The notes below the pieces were generated by a model. It was not told where the DNA came from. It was given only the letters and a program-made list of their open reading frames with translations, and did no database searches. Positions 1-32,207 of a DNA stretch of 47,322 nucleotides are shown here, in pieces; within the stretch, counting starts at the first letter, position 1; the number at the start of each line of letters is the position of its first letter. Made by a program: the position numbers and the translations under genes. The stretch is from NCBI GenBank assembly GCA_947587115.1, contig CANPXY010000001.1:1-47322 (forward strand), read 5' to 3'. The stretch is from an uncultured Bacilli bacterium. GTDB lineage: Bacteria > Bacillota_I > Bacilli_A > RF39 > UBA660.

Positions 1-1078
1 TCATACTATTTGAAAAAACTCCATATTCTATAGATTTTACACTTGAGGGAATTATTACACTAGTTATGTTATTATCTGCAAAAGCCTGATTTCCTATCGA
101 AGTGACACTTGAGGGAATTGTAGTACTTGTTAATTCATTCCCATAAAAAGCTCTTTGGGCTATTTCGGTTACTCCTTCTGGTATTACTACACTCGTGATA
201 CCTAAACCATTGTTATGAAACGAAAAAGGAAAGCCACCGTTTGAGCAATAATTATTACTTTGGCATTTTTCATTAGCAGAATCAGAATATCCTATACTTT
301 TTACAGCAGTCCCTTTAATTGTATTCGGAATAACAACATCTGTAATAATCTCTCCCGCTGGACTTTGTTCATCTGTATTAGGACGCAAATTGGTTGAATC
401 AATATCTCCTAGATATGTCCCACACAAATATGCAATAATTGTTCCTGAACTTTCATCAAATTCAAAACAATCTTCTGGCGTTGGGATTAACTGTTTTCCT
501 ACTACCTTTATCTTTCCATTGAATACTTTTCCAGCAACATCTTCTGGATTTGTGACTTCACTATCTATCCATAGTCTTAAATCATAACTATAATTTTCAC
601 TTGGGTATATAATTCCGGTATCTAATACCCTTTGTTCTCCTTGCTTGGTTTCAGACAATAATTTATGTAGATTAATGTAAGGTCCAGTGCTATAATCAAT
701 TTTTCCAATCATTGAAATATTTATTCCGTCCTTGCTTAACCCAAGTCTAATTATTTCATCTTTTAATTTTGGCTTTTCTACATCTACATCTTCTAGATAA
801 ATCGTATATCTGGATGGTACATTTCCGTTATTTGTTAACGTAAAGTGATAGGGATCCTTACTTAGTCCTACCTCATCACTCATCGGTAAGGCTTTTCCCA
901 TAGTGATACCATTACTCTCTTTATCATCCAACTCTAATGAGAGATTACCAGCCTTAAGCGTATTACCGTTTTTTCCATTTAAAGTTAGATGTAACCAAGC
1001 ATAACTTACTCCTACTAATACTATTAGTCCTATCGTTATTGGAAGTATCCACGCCAATATCCGTTTCCTTTTTTCCAC
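1..1078 (-). CDS. BspA-type leucine-rich-repeat surface protein, N-terminal 359 codons (3' end runs off the window). Paralog of 21008..22312.
   Basis: Absent from the ORF track because there is no stop in the window. My translation from GTG at 1078 reads VEKRKRILAWILPITIGLIVLVGVSYAWLHLTLNGKNGNTLKAGNLSLELDD...PEDCFEFDESSGTIIAYLCG...VVIPEGVTEIAQRAFYGNELTSTTIPSSVTSIGNQAFADNNITSVIIPSSVKSIEYGVFSNSM. It has the same TM anchor, N-module and LRR_5-like repeats as the 434-aa ORF. The start codon choice (GTG) is tentative. Confidence 0.8.
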   Translation of the reverse strand, partial: MEKRKRILAWILPITIGLIVLVGVSYAWLHLTLNGKNGNTLKAGNLSLELDDKESNGITMGKALPMSDEVGLSKDPYHFTLTNNGNVPSRYTIYLEDVDVEKPKLKDEIIRLGLSKDGINISMIGKIDYSTGPYINLHKLLSETKQGEQRVLDTGIIYPSENYSYDLRLWIDSEVTNPEDVAGKVFNGKIKVVGKQLIPTPEDCFEFDESSGTIIAYLCGTYLGDIDSTNLRPNTDEQSPAGEIITDVVIPNTIKGTAVKSIGYSDSANEKCQSNNYCSNGGFPFSFHNNGLGITSVVIPEGVTEIAQRAFYGNELTSTTIPSSVTSIGNQAFADNNITSVIIPSSVKSIEYGVFSNSM

Positions 1079-1100
1079 TTTTTCACTACCTTTCCCTTTT

Positions 1101-1132
1101 ATTATAAAAATACAACCCCCCCCCCCTGTCAA
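1101..1132 (-). promoter_or_regulatory. Sigma-A-type promoter with a homopolymer in the spacer: TTGACA-G11-ttgtatttt-TATAAT (20-nt spacer)
   Basis: On the minus strand, -35 TTGACA is + 1127..1132 and -10 TATAAT is + 1101..1106. The spacer is 1107..1126. It lies 22 nt upstream of the GTG at 1078. Confidence 0.6.
1116..1126 (-). repeat. Homopolymer G11 (C11 on the + strand) inside the promoter spacer
   Basis: Counted directly: tacaa-ccccccccccc-tgtcaa. Confidence 0.95.
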
Positions 1133-1184
1133 TTTTTACACAAAAAAAGCTAAGATAAGAAAGTAAAACAATGTAAAGCATTTA

Positions 1185-3260
1185 TCAAAAAGGTGGATAA
1201 AGTTCAAAGTATTTATCGCTGACGCGCTTGGTAATGGTCCTCGTAACCATACTACTGTAACTACTTCGACCGTTGGGATTGTTGACATCAGGACTCATCA
1301 CAACGATACTCATCTTAGGATTTTCACTAGGGGCATAACCGACAAAGGCCGTACTGATCGTCTCGGTATCGATGATGCCATCACCATCTTGATCCATAAA
1401 ACTTTCACTCGTACCAGTTTTCCCACTCGGATCATAACGATTGTCTATATAATTGTGCCCAATTCCATAACTGGCCATAGTTACCGCATGAAATCCTTCT
1501 TTGACCCGATTTAAAAATCGTTCCTCCGTATCAATTTTATTTAATTCGACTGGTTGCACTTGCTCAAGTAAATCTCCTAGTGCACTTCCCTCTGTCGCCG
1601 CATGAATTTCTTTTAATAGATGAGGTTGCAATCTTGATCCACCATTGGCAATAGTCGAAACATATTGTGAAAGTTGAATTGGTGTATAAGTATCATATTG
1701 CCCCATTGAAAAATCAAGCAAATGTCCTGGTAAAGTCGAGGTCCCCTTGTATCCTAAACTTTCTAAAGGCAAATCAATCCCTGTTTTGACTCCTAAACCA
1801 AACTGCTGATACGTATTGCGATAAATCGTAAAAGCTTCTGGATTAATTTTTAGTGGCTGATTATATTGATATACAGCTCCCCCAACCTTCATTGCAATCT
1901 TAAATTGATAGATGTTCGACGACAGTGCCAATGCCTGAATATCGTTGATCCTTCCCAGCGTCTTCCAAGAACATTTTATTGGCGTCGATAGAATCTTAAT
2001 ACATTCATCTTGTTGATATTCACCAATTTGAATGACCCCCGTATTGTATCCCACCAAAATGGAAGCGCCTTTGACGACACTCCCGACAGTCATTGGCGAA
2101 GTGACAACGCCAGGTGTATAATCATAGAATTCTTTTTGTCCATTCTTAGTAAGTAACTGTTTCCCACTCATCGCTAGAATTTCTCCCGTATTAGGATCTT
2201 GAATGACGACAAAACTGCGATTATAAAACTCAGTATTTGGAGTCAATTTGGCCATAGCAATTTCTTCTTTTAATATTTCTTCCACGGCCTGTTGGAGATG
2301 AATATCGATCGTAAGAACGAGATCTTGACCACGCTCTTCTTCTTCCACCAACTGAAGCTTATAACGATTTACAACCTGATATTTCGCTTTTTTCCCACGT
2401 AAAAGTTCTTCATATTGTTGTTCTAGATAACTGATACCTACACGATCATTTAAAGAATAACCTTTTTTCAAATACATATCGACCAGTTCCTCAGGAATTC
2501 CCTGATTTTGATTGCTCACCGTTCCTAAAATTGTTCGAAAAGTATCTCCATATAAATAGATCCGCTCCCAATCCAGCTTTACATGAAATCCACCCAATGA
2601 AGAATTGTGTTCAGCTACATAAGCATATTCTTCTTCACTGACTGAGTCGCTCTTAATAATCTTTTCGTCATAAGAAAAACCTCGATTCATCAAGTAATAA
2701 AGATACGCCGTCTTCCTCTCTTCTTCTTGATAGATACTTAAATCTTCCTCCGTGATTCGATCGATTTTCAAATTTTCAATATCGCTCTCTGAAAGCCTTC
2801 GTTCCTCAAGTTTTCGCCACTCTTCTTCGCTGATCTTGGCATTTCCTTCTTTTGGATGTTCTGCCAACCAAAATTCTTTAAGATTCCGTAGAGCCAATTT
2901 AGAAGTATCTAAGGTAAGATGGGGACTGACTTGATAGGCAAGCTCCAATTCCTCTTCGGTCGTGCGATCTTTATCTTTCTGATAATAGATCGTCTTCATG
3001 CCCTTATTATCGACCAACAGATTATAATTCCGATCATAAATTCTCCCTCTTGGGGCACTGTTTCCTTCCACGATCACATGAGCAATTTGATCCAATTTTT
3101 TTTGATAGACTTCTCTTTGAATATAGATCATGTCATAAAGACGGAAAAAAAGTATCAAAAAAAGTCCTACAACCAAAATAGTCAAAAACAAAAAACGTCG
3201 CGATGATTGTTCGGCTTCTTTATTTTTAGCGATTAAAGTGCTTTGGCTCTTACTTTTCAT
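1185..3260 (-). CDS. Class B penicillin-binding protein (PBP2/PBP2B-type transpeptidase)
   Basis: N-terminal TM anchor; SxxK (SVVK), SxN (SSN) and KTG (KTGTS) motifs in the correct order. The track start at 3272 is a TTG. The ATG at 3260 (MKSKSQ) has a GGTGA SD upstream. Confidence 0.9.
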   Translation of the reverse strand: MKSKSQSTLIAKNKEAEQSSRRFLFLTILVVGLFLILFFRLYDMIYIQREVYQKKLDQIAHVIVEGNSAPRGRIYDRNYNLLVDNKGMKTIYYQKDKDRTTEEELELAYQVSPHLTLDTSKLALRNLKEFWLAEHPKEGNAKISEEEWRKLEERRLSESDIENLKIDRITEEDLSIYQEEERKTAYLYYLMNRGFSYDEKIIKSDSVSEEEYAYVAEHNSSLGGFHVKLDWERIYLYGDTFRTILGTVSNQNQGIPEELVDMYLKKGYSLNDRVGISYLEQQYEELLRGKKAKYQVVNRYKLQLVEEEERGQDLVLTIDIHLQQAVEEILKEEIAMAKLTPNTEFYNRSFVVIQDPNTGEILAMSGKQLLTKNGQKEFYDYTPGVVTSPMTVGSVVKGASILVGYNTGVIQIGEYQQDECIKILSTPIKCSWKTLGRINDIQALALSSNIYQFKIAMKVGGAVYQYNQPLKINPEAFTIYRNTYQQFGLGVKTGIDLPLESLGYKGTSTLPGHLLDFSMGQYDTYTPIQLSQYVSTIANGGSRLQPHLLKEIHAATEGSALGDLLEQVQPVELNKIDTEERFLNRVKEGFHAVTMASYGIGHNYIDNRYDPSGKTGTSESFMDQDGDGIIDTETISTAFVGYAPSENPKMSIVVMSPDVNNPNGRSSYSSMVTRTITKRVSDKYFELYPPF

Positions 3261-3328
3261 GCTTCTCACCAATAATAGTTTGGCTCATATTTAAAAAGTT
3301 ATTGCATATATTTTAACGGAGGAAAAGA

Positions 3329-20934: not shown

Positions 20935-21007
20935 AGTCTCACCTCTTCTTTAGTTTAACATAAAATAATCACACAAAAAAGAGGGAGCTCCCTCAATTAT
21001 TTTTTAT

Positions 21008-22312
21008 CTATGGTTCCCAGTGGATGCATGGGTTAGTATCGTCTCCAGTAACTTGCCCAATATCTTCCCAGTGGTTATATGAATGTGTCCTACAGACGCT
21101 TCCTTCAAGCCACCCATCTTCTCCCTGCATGCCAGGATAAAAAGGCCCATAACCACCATGAGGATAAGGGTCGATTTCGAATTTTTCACCATAACTTGTG
21201 AATTCTGAAACGCTACTTTTTCCTTTGATGGTAACAGAAACTAATGGATTATCGCGAAAAGCGAAGTTGCCTAACGCTTCTACATTCTCTGGTATTACAA
21301 CAGAAGTTAATTTATTACTCCAGAATGCCTCGTAATCAATAGTTTTAACTGTTGATGGCAATACAATACTTGTTAATTGATTATGACTAAAAGTAGAATC
21401 GTGTATTGTTGTAACCCCTTCTGGTATTACTACACTTGTTAATTGATTACTATAAAAAGCATACATTCCTATTTCCGTAACTCCTTCAGGTATGATGACA
21501 CTTGTGATTCCAGTGAAAGCAAAACTATCGCGTGGTGGCGTGGTGGTACCTTTAATTGCTTTTACAGGTATCCCACCAATCGTCTCTGGTATCACAACAT
21601 CTGTGATAAATCGTCCTGCCGGACTGTTTTCTACTGTATTGTCCTTTGTTACTTCTTCATATCCTTCTCTAAAAGTTGGTCCACATAAATATTTCGTAAT
21701 TGCCCCTTTTCCATCAAACTCAAAACATTCTTCTGGTGTTGGTGCATGTTCTACTACTTGCTCTGCTTCTACTCGGATCTTTCCTCGAAACGTCTTCCCT
21801 GCTGCCATAGTACTCGTCGCATCTTGATCAACCCACATTCTTAAGTCATAACTAAATGTTTCTCCACCTTTGATTACTCCGGTATCTAGTACTCGGTCGT
21901 GATCTTCTTCTGTGACATATGATAACAACGTTCGGATTAAAGTAGTATCATCCTTTTTTAAATCAAACTTGATCGCATCATCTGGTAACTGTGTTTCTCC
22001 TTCTTCTAAACTTACATTATCTAGGTAGATGGTATATTTACTAGCAGTTGTCCCGCCCTTGATCAGTTTAAATGTGTAAGGATCTTCCTCTAAACCTACG
22101 GCATCTAATACGGGCAAAACACCATCGCCATTGATCGCTACTCCGTTTGTGTCATCAAGCTCCAAGCTTAAATCTCCTACTTTTAAGACATTGGTTTTAG
22201 TACCATCTAAAGTTAATTGTAACCATGCATAACTCGCGCTTAACAACAAAATTGTACCTAATATAATGGGCAATCCAAAACCAAAAAGTTGTTTCTTCTG
22301 TTCTTTCGTCAT
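21008..22312 (-). CDS. BspA-type leucine-rich-repeat surface protein with an N-terminal membrane anchor and signal
   Basis: MTKEQKKQLFGFGLPIILGTILLLSASYAWLQLTLDGTKTNVLKVGDLSLELDD. It has 5-6 LRR_5-like repeats (IPEGVTEIGMYAFYSNQLTSVVIPEGVTTIHDSTFSHNQLTSIVLPSTVKTIDYEAFWSNKLTSVVIPENVEALGNFAF). A GGAGG SD is present. Confidence 0.9.
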   Translation of the reverse strand: MTKEQKKQLFGFGLPIILGTILLLSASYAWLQLTLDGTKTNVLKVGDLSLELDDTNGVAINGDGVLPVLDAVGLEEDPYTFKLIKGGTTASKYTIYLDNVSLEEGETQLPDDAIKFDLKKDDTTLIRTLLSYVTEEDHDRVLDTGVIKGGETFSYDLRMWVDQDATSTMAAGKTFRGKIRVEAEQVVEHAPTPEECFEFDGKGAITKYLCGPTFREGYEEVTKDNTVENSPAGRFITDVVIPETIGGIPVKAIKGTTTPPRDSFAFTGITSVIIPEGVTEIGMYAFYSNQLTSVVIPEGVTTIHDSTFSHNQLTSIVLPSTVKTIDYEAFWSNKLTSVVIPENVEALGNFAFRDNPLVSVTIKGKSSVSEFTSYGEKFEIDPYPHGGYGPFYPGMQGEDGWLEGSVCRTHSYNHWEDIGQVTGDDTNPCIHWEP

Positions 22313-22339
22313 ATTCTTCCTCCTTTATTTTCTACTTTC

Positions 22340-22371
22340 ATTATAATTCACACCCCCCCCCCGTCTGTCAA
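22340..22371 (-). promoter_or_regulatory. Sigma-A-type promoter with a homopolymer in the spacer: TTGACA-gac-G10-tgtgaat-TATAAT (20-nt spacer)
   Basis: On the minus strand, -35 is + 22366..22371 and -10 is + 22340..22345. It lies 27 nt upstream of ATG 22312. Confidence 0.6.
22353..22362 (-). repeat. Homopolymer G10 (C10 on the + strand) inside the promoter spacer
   Basis: Counted directly: ca-cccccccccc-gtctgtcaa. Confidence 0.95.
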
Positions 22372-22402
22372 CGGGTGGATGGGTGTGATATGTAAATTTG
22401 TG

Positions 22403-22427
22403 TAAAAAAAAACTAGATTACCTAGTT
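22403..22427 (-). terminator. Rho-independent terminator downstream of tRNA-Glu
   Basis: Minus strand: aactag-gtaat-ctagtt followed by T9. Confidence 0.7.
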
Positions 22428-22437
22428 AAATTCTATA

Positions 22438-22514
22438 TGGTGACCTGTATGGGGTTTGAACCCATGAATACCACCTTGAGAGGGTGGCGTGTTGAACCAC
22501 TTCACCAACAGGCC
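22438..22514 (-). tRNA. tRNA-Glu (anticodon CUC), CCA encoded
   Basis: Minus strand reads GGCCTGTTGGTGAAGTGGTTCAACACGCCACCCTCTCAAGGTGGTATTCATGGGTTCAAACCCCATACAGGTCACCA. It folds by hand into a cloverleaf: acceptor GGCCTGT/ACAGGTC, anticodon stem CCACC/GGTGG with loop CUCUCAA, and T arm ATGGG-TTCAAAC-CCCAT. It closely resembles Bacillus tRNA-Glu. Confidence 0.9.
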
Positions 22515-22673: not shown

Positions 22674-23666
22674 TCAATAGACCCCATCTAATATATCCAT
22701 AAATGCTTGATAGCGATATAGATAAGCATACTTAGAAAGCAAACGCACTTCTTCACACAGTGGAGCATGAATTCGTCGTTCCACCTTTTGAAAGATTTCG
22801 TCCATATCGATTTTTTGACGAAGAACAGAATTACAATAATCGTATACTTCATCATCTTCGATCAAAGCTTCCAAAGTGTCCTTCCATAAAGACTCAAATC
22901 CGCCCTCGCTAGAAGAGACCCACTTGCCAATGCGCGGTTGGGCGATCGAAGTAGAAAGTTTTAGATTTTGATAATCTCCTAGCAACAAACGTACCGTTGT
23001 AATATCATTATCTAAAAGTAAAGCAGCTTCACTATCATAATTGGGACTAAGTTCCCAATGATGAGAGCTCTCGATAAAAGAGAAATTTTCAACATGCTTA
23101 TCGGTTTCCAACATCAACAGCGAAAAAGCCAACCGCTTCTTATATTCCACGAGCAAGCGCTCTACCTCTTCTTTAGAAATTCCTTGTTGCGTAAAATATA
23201 ACTTTAACTTTTGAATCGTATAATCATAGTCTGTGGCATCGGCAAAGTTTCCTTGATCTTCATCACCGATCATCGAACGCAAAGAGTGAAGATGCTCTAG
23301 AGGCGGATCGATCATCGCGACCGACAAGACACCATGCGTCAGTTTTCCTTGTTGGTCAAGAAGCTGAACAAGATCATAATGGGCCATCGAAACTCCCAAA
23401 GATTTCCCTATTTCTTCGACGATGAGTTCCGAATAAATTCCATAGTTTGCTTCCGTATCCAACTGAATCTCGCCCTTTATAAGAACGAGATCATCTCCAA
23501 AACGAACCCAGTTTTTAATACGATTTTGATTGCCCATCGGCTCTTTGGAGCGATCAGTTAAAACAAGATCGGTCAAAGAAAGATCTAAAAACCCTTCTTG
23601 GGTACGAAACGTCTCTAAGTCTTTCAACGTATATTTACATTTTTCAAAACATTCTTCTTTTACCAT
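22674..23666 (-). CDS. HipA-like kinase-domain protein (HipA_C type)
   Basis: ETDKHVENFSF...WELSPNYDSE matches the HipA catalytic loop (D-x-H-x-x-N) and the Mg-binding (a)PaYD motif. At 330 aa it is about the size of HipT-type short HipA proteins. Confidence 0.6.
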   Translation of the reverse strand: MVKEECFEKCKYTLKDLETFRTQEGFLDLSLTDLVLTDRSKEPMGNQNRIKNWVRFGDDLVLIKGEIQLDTEANYGIYSELIVEEIGKSLGVSMAHYDLVQLLDQQGKLTHGVLSVAMIDPPLEHLHSLRSMIGDEDQGNFADATDYDYTIQKLKLYFTQQGISKEEVERLLVEYKKRLAFSLLMLETDKHVENFSFIESSHHWELSPNYDSEAALLLDNDITTVRLLLGDYQNLKLSTSIAQPRIGKWVSSSEGGFESLWKDTLEALIEDDEVYDYCNSVLRQKIDMDEIFQKVERRIHAPLCEEVRLLSKYAYLYRYQAFMDILDGVY

Positions 23667-29573: not shown

Positions 29574-30539
29574 TTATTTTAAACGCTGAATAATGATCGT
29601 GACAACTGAATTTGTAAAAGATGAGAGATTATCATCTATTTTAGGACTGTCCAAATACATGGGATAGTTTCCTAGATTGACGAGTTCAAAGACGTCATTT
29701 TCTAATACAGTCGACACAATTCCTTGTCCTGTGAACTGAACGGGAATTTGATGATTATTCCAAACGGTCGCTCCGGCATAGACAGGATCTTCGCCAACCT
29801 TTTTAAAACCTACGACAATGATATCGCGGTCTTTTACGACAACGGTATCGTTGATAGCACTTGCTTGCACTGTAAATTGAATGCGATAAATTCCTGGATG
29901 AACAAAAGTAATCGTATGGTCATTCTCGTTAAAAATAAAGTTATTTTCCCAATCCGAAATTTTGATATCGAGCGGAATACGCGCTTTGGGCTGAACTTTG
30001 ATGCCAGTTGCGCCATCGGAATCGTCATAGAATGTGACAAAGAAAGCAGCTGGAATTTCGAGTGGTCCTGGCGGTCCCTCTGGACCCGGTTCCCCTGTCT
30101 CACCTTTTTCACCACGCCAACCTGTAGGTCCAGGAGCTCCTTCTGGTCCTGGTGGCCCTGGATTTCCTTGCTCCCCTTTTGGGCCACGAATATTTCCTAC
30201 ATCTATCCATTCATTTTTGCTTTCAGACCAAACATATAAATGCTCTCCTACGAGATAAGAAGCGCCTTTTGTCTCCTCTGGATGATCTTGTTTTAAACTT
30301 TCCAAAGAATCATAAGACCCCAAGATCGTAACACCTGTTCCATCTTGTCCCCTTGGAATGACAAAGTCCAAAGTATGTAAAGATCCCTCGTGATGATCGA
30401 TGACCTGGGCTTCACTTCCCGCATCTCCCGTTTGAATTTTTCCCAAAGCGATCGTCTCTGTAGTACCAGGAGCCCCTTGTGGACCCGTCGGTCCTTGGGG
30501 AATCGTCAAATTCAGTAAAAATTGAGGCCGGTCTTTCAA
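29574..30539 (-). CDS. Collagen-like (Gly-X-Y) protein with a C-terminal BclA/C1q-like globular domain
   Basis: TTG start with an AAGGGGGA SD. Contains [10 protein letters not shown], then 14 uninterrupted triplets [41 protein letters not shown], then a beta-rich tail of about 150 aa (FVTFYDD...[10 protein letters not shown]...VFELVNLG...VVTIIIQRL). Confidence 0.85.

Positions 30540-31481: not shown

Positions 31482-32207
<726 letters not shown>

Follow-up and report, generated by a model that had tools for sequence, protein, structure and literature searches.

A poly-G tract in the promoter spacer of a predicted BspA-type leucine-rich-repeat surface-protein gene as a candidate phase-variation switch in uncultured gut Bacilli

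The window analysed here is a stretch of 47,322 nucleotides (contig CANPXY010000001.1) from an uncultured Bacilli bacterium. Its gene content is that of an ordinary chromosomal region of a Firmicute with a cell wall and a low GC content (about 37%), with genes for PBP2, MurE, DnaG, SigA, RNase J, RNase III, IleRS, SepF and a signal peptidase. On its minus strand, downstream of a tRNA-Glu gene, lies a gene for a 434-residue protein whose promoter contains a run of ten G residues. The locus comprises the following features:

20981..20994, minus strand: intrinsic terminator (GAGGGAGCTCCCTC plus a T run), just past the stop codon
21008..22312, minus strand: coding sequence of 434 aa, with a signal or anchor, a β-sandwich, a BspA-type leucine-rich repeat (LRR) and a C-terminal NPCIHWEP
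22319..22323, minus strand: Shine-Dalgarno sequence GGAGG, read directly, 6 nt before the ATG at 22312
22340..22345, minus strand: -10 hexamer TATAAT, 20 nt from the -35 hexamer
22343-22348, minus strand: alternative -10 hexamer AATTAT, 17 nt from the -35 hexamer with G10
22346-22365, minus strand: 20-nt spacer, consisting of gac, G10 and tgtgaat
22353..22362, minus strand: G10 homopolymer (C10 on the plus strand), the proposed slippage tract
22366..22371, minus strand: -35 hexamer TTGACA, at the same start-codon distance in tract-free family members
22404-22427, minus strand: weak hairpin plus T9 after the tRNA gene, with a 6-bp AT-rich stem
22438-22514, minus strand: tRNA-Glu(CUC), the upstream neighbour of the 434-aa gene

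Read directly, the minus strand from 22371 to 22340 is TTGACA-gac-G10-tgtgaat-TATAAT. This agrees exactly with the sequence-only reading, which had also given the 20-nt spacer and the 27 nt, GGAGG among them, that separate TATAAT from the ATG. At the level of sequence, the tract lies between a predicted -35 and a predicted -10 hexamer that are both perfect and that are kept in tract-free homologues. Within the same region, the alternative hexamer AATTAT (22348-22343) keeps the critical A-11 and T-7. Because the terminator directly follows the stop codon, the gene is taken to be monocistronic; upstream, the tRNA is followed by the weak hairpin and T9 (which the terminator scan did not call), and the surface-protein gene therefore needs a promoter of its own. 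Rfam matched only the tRNA in the window. A spacing of 17 ± 1 nt is the established expectation of sigma-70 biology, and the SigA encoded in the window matches that of Bacillus subtilis with E=4e-152 and near-identical regions 2.4 and 4.2, so canonical -35/-10 recognition at this spacing is to be expected here. Immediately upstream of the tRNA lies a gene with a HipA_C domain (toxin kinase-like; 22674-23666, minus strand).

Several other readings of the promoter region were considered and set aside. An extended -10 element (TGn or TRTGn) does not fit the promoter at 22340, as the TGTG in tgtgaatTATAAT stands 3 nt from TATAAT and not 1, and a sigma-H-like reading of GAAT is not shared by the second copy of the promoter described below, which lacks this motif. 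No upstream open reading frame crosses the tract at this locus, there being no ATG between the tRNA terminator and the tract. An invertible promoter was likewise rejected: the only inverted repeat is imperfect and lies at the -35 hexamer, no flanking pair is present and the neighbouring genes include no recombinase. A MerR-type long-spacer promoter would fit the length of 20 nt, but G10 and the AT-rich remainder of the spacer show no dyad symmetry, and no MerR-like gene was found among the neighbours of the 434-aa gene. Shortening of the G tract by an A-form geometry could compensate for the length but not for the twist, and is pure speculation. The imperfect repeat itself (22341-22362 and 22374-22395), 22 nt long with 73% complementarity, has the -35 hexamer at its centre, and its upstream C-rich stretch, cacacccatccacc, is complementary to G10 plus tgtg; the repeat is absent from the second copy and from the relatives.

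The 434-aa protein begins with a lysine-rich stretch, followed by a hydrophobic segment and an invariant SYAW motif, together a predicted signal peptide or anchor. The motif resembles TasA/SipW-type signals to some degree; an assignment to TasA/camelysin (SipW-type signal) was dropped, as neither NCBIfam nor Pfam gave a match at E≤1. Next comes a module of about 190 residues predicted to form a β-sandwich, and the LRR region matches Pfam LRR_5 (PF13306, BspA-type) with E=2e-24 and 86.4 bits against a cut-off of 27.7; the C-terminal NPCIHWEP is conserved. The signal and β-sandwich part (window 21722-22312) has no Pfam or NCBIfam match. The AlphaFold2 (AF2) model of the protein has a pLDDT of 75.6. 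A fold search returned LRR cell-surface proteins of gut Bacteroides, Faecalibacterium and Eubacterium, and its β-sandwich matches were only weak and generic. The LRR_5 match, the N-terminal signal or anchor and the fold neighbours together bear out, as a prediction, the identification of the product as an LRR surface protein in the sequence-only reading, and we predict that it is surface-exposed or acts in host interaction.

The N-terminal module defines a large family. It occurs in 1915 cluster representatives, always at the N terminus of proteins of 180-3535 aa, and in relatives it also heads non-LRR C-termini (the C-termini found being LRR, DUF6273-like and others; for example, L075 1498-3408 and L018 1498-2772, where L numbers denote loci of the family). 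At least nine further paralogues apparently come from the same NCBI assembly, and the family has at least ten copies per genome. The relatives are gut metagenome-assembled genomes (MAGs) deposited as 'uncultured Tenericutes/Bacilli/Erysipelotrichaceae', many with 10-20 family copies, from the guts of rabbit, mouse, squirrel, sheep and human; some of these bins are evidently mis-labelled as Muribaculaceae or Phocaeicola.

One of the paralogues lies in the window itself, behind a promoter of the same design:

1..1078, minus strand: paralogous coding sequence with a GTG start at 1078, running off the window (44% amino-acid identity, E=1e-91)
1101..1132, minus strand: second promoter, TTGACA-G11-ttgtatttt-TATAAT, spacer 20 nt, with G11 at 1116-1126

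The paralogue matches LRR_5 with 60.6 bits (cut-off 27.7) and stands directly downstream of the PBP2 gene (1185-3272); its promoter ends 22 nt upstream of the GTG. This copy has no comparable alternative -10 hexamer, since TTTTAT lacks A-11. Both G10 (22353-22362) and G11 (1116-1126) are uninterrupted homopolymers longer than the roughly 7-8 residues from which simple sequence repeats (SSRs) of this kind are known to slip. A 31-codon ATG-initiated open reading frame (1086-1181, minus strand) spans G11, and a G10 state would put it in frame with the main gene; this is probably a coincidence.

The co-occurrence of promoter and tract is more than chance. Perfect TTGACA-N14-22-TATAAT promoters number four in the window against 0.16 expected from shuffles, the other two having spacers of 17 and 18 nt. 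A G8 word is expected 0.21 times, and the window holds no G or C run of 6-9; its only runs above five are C10 (22353-22362) and C11 (1116-1126, both on the plus strand), each of them inside the spacer of a perfect promoter of one of two paralogous genes. These counts also bear on the idea of a static relic, in which tract and promoter are decaying, or the gene is constitutively silent or expressed by read-through from the tRNA-Glu and PBP2 transcripts, and no switching takes place. Transcription could indeed enter from upstream at both copies: the terminator after the tRNA is weak (a 6-bp AT-rich stem and T9), and the sequence from PBP2 to the second copy shows no obvious strong terminator. 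A relic would gather substitutions, however, whereas all hexamers are perfect in both copies, both open reading frames are intact and conserved, and G10 and G11 are unbroken in a genome of 37% GC with no other G or C run above five.

Homologous promoters in relatives show what the family promoter looks like without a tract. The syntenic orthologue of the second copy (L080/L081, located after PBP2 in the same gene order) has TTGACA-18-TATAAT and no G tract, a close relative (L082/L083) has the same tract-free TTGACA-18-TATAAT, and L162/L163, one of only two matches in a search with the N-terminal part of the protein alone, has a tract-free TTGCAC-17-TACAAT. In all of these, the promoter begins 53-59 nt from the start codon (at -53 in L080/L081 and L082/L083), as it does in the window. 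Because TTGACA-17/18-TATAAT stands equally far from the start codon in tract-free orthologues and paralogues, we take the hexamers to be the real family promoter. The two forms also occur side by side in a pair of homologues, with TTGACA-17-TATACT in L113 and TTGACA-ta-G7-tgtgtta-TATACT in L127.

The module with a tract in the spacer is present in at least eight other assemblies, with tracts of G7-G11 that read G on the sense strand and begin within 0-5 nt of the -35 hexamer in nearly all tract promoters. The loci, with tract and spacer, are:

L039: G9, spacer 20 nt
L052: G10, spacer 20 nt
L107: G11, spacer 20 nt
L047: G8, spacer 16 nt
L049: G9, spacer 16 nt
L068, L075 and L078: G8, spacer 16 nt
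L127: G7, spacer 16 nt
L073: G7, spacer 15 nt
L038: G9, spacer 15 nt

On the sense strand of the 163 family loci (451 kb), runs of seven or more G occur 34 times and runs of seven or more C not at all. An exact-pattern scan of metagenome contigs for the window promoter with G6-G14 gave 0 matches. Spacers of 17-18 nt are found in 11/14 tract-free promoters, a set defined by at least 11/12 hexamer matches, and in 3/25 G-tract promoters (Fisher p=6e-5), on account of which consensus assemblies appear mostly to capture G-tract promoters in sub-optimal registers, as is typical of contingency loci.

The sub-optimal registers are not evenly spread. Five independent promoters, the two of the window (WIN1 and WIN2) and those of L039, L052 and L107, have spacers of exactly 20 nt with tracts of G9-G11 and differing flanks; the remaining tract promoters cluster at 15-17 nt, and none is at 18-19 nt. 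If OFF states were purely random, this recurrence would not be expected, which keeps alive another explanation: that the G-rich spacer of 20 nt is fixed and functional, a deliberately mis-spaced promoter that a factor acting in trans, or DNA topology, would activate, with the tract as a structural or recognition element rather than a mutational counter, in the manner of activator-dependent or MerR-like promoters. The constancy of 20 nt in these five promoters despite their different tracts and flanks speaks for such a design, as does the position of the tract 0-5 nt from the -35 hexamer in nearly all cases. Other features speak against it. The spacer consists of a homopolymer and 7-11 AT-rich nucleotides and contains neither a dyad nor anything like an operator; the second copy lacks the imperfect inverted repeat at the -35 hexamer; no regulator gene is adjacent; and homologous promoters stand at 15, 16 and 17 nt, varying between samples with identical flanks. 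We therefore regard a fixed spacer as improbable. Alternatively, the repeated occurrence of 20 nt might reflect a defined 'parked' state and not a random OFF.

Some promoters of the family depart from the common pattern. The closest relative in the genome collection, L001 (~1448-1477), has TTGACA-tgggtaggggatacattt-TATAAT with a spacer of 18 nt; it has the appearance of a G tract broken up by substitutions, which would have locked the switch close to its optimal register. Its interrupted-looking tract (tgggtagggga) indicates that tracts can decay, as the static-relic reading would have it. In L107 (~800-900), the promoter is TTGACG-t-G11-tattgtga-TAAAAT, to which a TGTGn extended -10 fits (tgtgaTAAAAT). 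Between this promoter and the family gene lie a hairpin and T8. The paralogue L106 has no G-tract promoter but shares the hairpin and the proximal TATAAT. Rfam found nothing in L107. About 120 nt upstream of the gene, L040 and L076 carry TTGATA-tcatgaagttatcttttttt-TATAAT, whose 20-nt spacer ends in T7, a possible poly-T analogue of the G-tract design.

Public assemblies also allow the same locus to be compared between samples, and tract length differs among them. For P0133, where the protein is identical, the tracts are G9 (L158), G8 (L159) and G9 (L160), with 0 SNPs in 2702 nt. In five samples of P0131, with G8, G7, G7, G8 and G9, the 2.4-2.7 kb compared contain 2-38 SNPs but no indels other than the tract differences, and four samples of P0122 all have G8. 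The spacers across the samples of P0133, P0131 and P0122 are thereby 15, 16 and 17 nt, where differences of ±1 G may in part be homopolymer consensus noise, some contigs having only 4-7x coverage. The sequence-only reading had proposed comparing tract length among related genomes, and the comparison goes its way: tracts range from G7 to G11 across relatives, and loci with identical proteins differ only in tract length. Such tract-only polymorphism among relatives also weighs against a static relic, an account that we hold to be unlikely, and the phase-variation reading is well supported by the comparison with relatives, as far as assembled sequences can show it.

Two contigs, L147 and L161, start exactly at or in the tract (position 1); L147 is the closest non-self relative of the window protein and has the same -10 hexamer and 5′ untranslated region. 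These starts suggest that G tracts break short-read assemblies. Poly-G artefacts occur in two-colour chemistry, so that the tract itself could be a sequencing or assembly artefact, either poly-G of two-colour Illumina reads or a homopolymer mis-call, and the breaking of relatives' contigs at the tract could be read in that sense. Against this, the tract lies well within a contig of 47 kb and is flanked on both sides by sequence that makes sense, it falls precisely between two perfect hexamers twice in the window, and tracts at the homologous position occur in independent assemblies from different studies and hosts. An artefact is thus a very remote prospect.

On this evidence, we consider it likely that G10 is a contingency (hypermutable) element in the sigma-A promoter spacer of a secreted or anchored LRR surface protein. 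During replication, slipped-strand mispairing would add or remove G residues at G10, and each gain or loss would shift the distance between TTGACA and TATAAT. A tract of G7-G8 would give a spacer of 17-18 nt and, presumably, maximal transcription; the maximum is placed there because all tract-free promoters of the family, like the other perfect promoters of the window, have this spacing. In the assembled G10 state, the spacer of 20 nt would leave the TATAAT register weak or silent, with residual activity possible from the AATTAT register. With at least two family copies each carrying its own tract, the combination of surface proteins on display would vary within a clonal population, and their biological role may lie in interaction with the host or with phage and the immune system. 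The promoter-spacer switch proposed in the sequence-only reading thus gains support in silico from the tract-free homologues at 17/18 nt, the second copy, the G7-G11 module and the tract-only polymorphism in relatives. Its description of the present copy as 'phase-OFF or low' may hold for low and is uncertain for OFF: AATTAT has an ideal spacer of 17 nt at G10 and retains A-11 and T-7, so the present state may be low rather than off.

Repeats within the spacer or near the hexamers are known from Neisseria meningitidis porA (poly-G) and opc (poly-C), Bordetella pertussis fim (poly-C), Haemophilus influenzae hifA/B (TA repeats; a hif reference is listed in PMC11868660) and Mycoplasma hyorhinis vlp (poly-A), the last a multigene family with one switch per gene. 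In these systems, changes in repeat number alter promoter geometry and yield ON, intermediate and OFF states of surface antigens. The window promoters resemble them in having a repeat between or beside the -35 and -10 hexamers ahead of a surface-protein gene. They differ from them in taxa and proteins, in having fully consensus hexamers with both window copies at 20 nt, and in that relatives place tracts of this family within genes and in upstream ORFs as well. SSR contingency loci have been described mainly in pathogens (Neisseria, Haemophilus, Campylobacter, Helicobacter, Treponema and mycoplasmas), and the cases of phase variation known in gut commensals are mostly invertible promoters of Bacteroidales and of a few Firmicutes.

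A close parallel in design is found in Treponema pallidum, where the poly-G of tp0126 (an OmpW homologue) occupies the region between -35 and -10, and the gene is transcribed best when these are 17 nt apart; the tprE/G/J/L promoters have poly-G tracts as well, and tracts of 7-11 G vary within strains (PMC7864442, citing Giacani 2007, 2015). Like those of tp0126 and tpr, the tract in the window would stand in the promoter of a gene for a surface or outer-membrane protein. T. pallidum, however, is a spirochaete pathogen with unrelated β-barrel proteins, whereas the present case concerns uncultured low-GC gut Bacilli and a family with a predicted N-terminal β-sandwich module and LRR or other C-terminal domains. 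For the protein family, the nearest parallel is 'Candidatus Mycoplasma girerdii', whose large BspA-type LRR family is phase-variable by SSRs, mostly CA repeats in or near the coding sequence that cause frameshifts (PMC5476646); most of its BspA-like copies are predicted to be 'off' in the consensus, as detected from metagenomic data (PMC5476646). Both cases concern a BspA-type LRR surface family in a low-GC, host-associated Bacilli/Mollicutes lineage; unlike those CA repeats, the G homopolymer of the window would act on transcription, from its place in a promoter spacer. In Campylobacter jejuni and Helicobacter, the hypermutable elements of an AT-rich genome are predominantly G8-G11 tracts, concentrated in genes for surface structures (PMC6321876, PMC2823697). 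Their tracts are mostly intragenic, in contrast to those of the window, and they are Epsilonproteobacteria without MutS/L-type mismatch repair.

The mechanism is thus already known, and what is new for it is the gene family and the lineage. A search of the literature turned up no case in gut Bacilli of a promoter-spacer poly-G controlling LRR proteins or the N-terminal-module family. The sequence-only reading knew of no description of its mechanism for BspA-like LRR adhesins in low-GC Gram-positives; this stands for the promoter-spacer poly-G form, but SSR phase variation of BspA-like proteins in a low-GC lineage has a precedent (PMC5476646). An uncultured, cell-walled, low-GC gut lineage would, in this interpretation, use a classical poly-G promoter switch on a multi-copy surface family, and public assemblies show its tract-only polymorphism between human samples. 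If this is true, the switch would provide stochastic surface diversification, which matters for host attachment and for encounters with IgA and phage; the lengths of homopolymers in the consensus sequences of MAGs would carry information on biological state as well as cause contig breaks, and the N-terminal module would flag a large unannotated family of variable surface proteins.

Poly-G tracts also occur at other positions in the family. In L020 (rabbit-gut MAG CANROU010000001; 1470-1500 and 2927-2957), two tandem genes each have a normal TTGAAA-17-TATAAT promoter upstream and a G9 at codons 7-9; G9 is out of frame, and G8 or G11 would give the full protein. Five loci of one MAG (L003, L006, L007, L012 and L018) have a G9 in a small upstream open reading frame (uORF) enclosed by a long hairpin, which is conserved and has an intrinsic terminator behind it (z=-5.2). 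The positions of this hairpin/uORF element of about 130 nt are:

L003: ~1284-1418
L006: ~1282-1416
L007: 62-192
L012: 1220-1352
L018: 2780-2910

One tract-length frame of the element extends the small open reading frame to a stop inside the terminator stem. Between two samples with about 1% SNPs, the tract in a small uORF reads G6 in L085 (884-889) and G10 in L086 (880-889); in the third frame (G8/G11), the uORF passes a terminator-like hairpin and ends at an ATGA overlap with the gene start. Rfam gave no match for the upstream elements of L018 and L086. L020, the uORFs of the one MAG and L085/L086 show an association of the family as a whole with hypermutable G tracts. The uORF-tract arrangement might be a phase-variable leader-peptide attenuator or a translational coupler, which is speculation; we know of no switch type of this kind, and none was found in the literature searched. 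The broadest reading, that a clade of uncultured gut Bacilli holds a large N-terminal-module surface family under poly-G tracts at the promoter spacer (as in the window), the 5′ coding region (as in L020) and a uORF before a terminator, is a tentative one that we rate as rather doubtful.

Elsewhere in the window, two genes encode proteins with collagen triple-helix repeats (29574-30539 and 31482-32192). One of them contains a unit of 18 nt repeated about 15 times (tandem repeat at 31760-32039) and is potentially another length-variable surface protein, perhaps exosporium-like.
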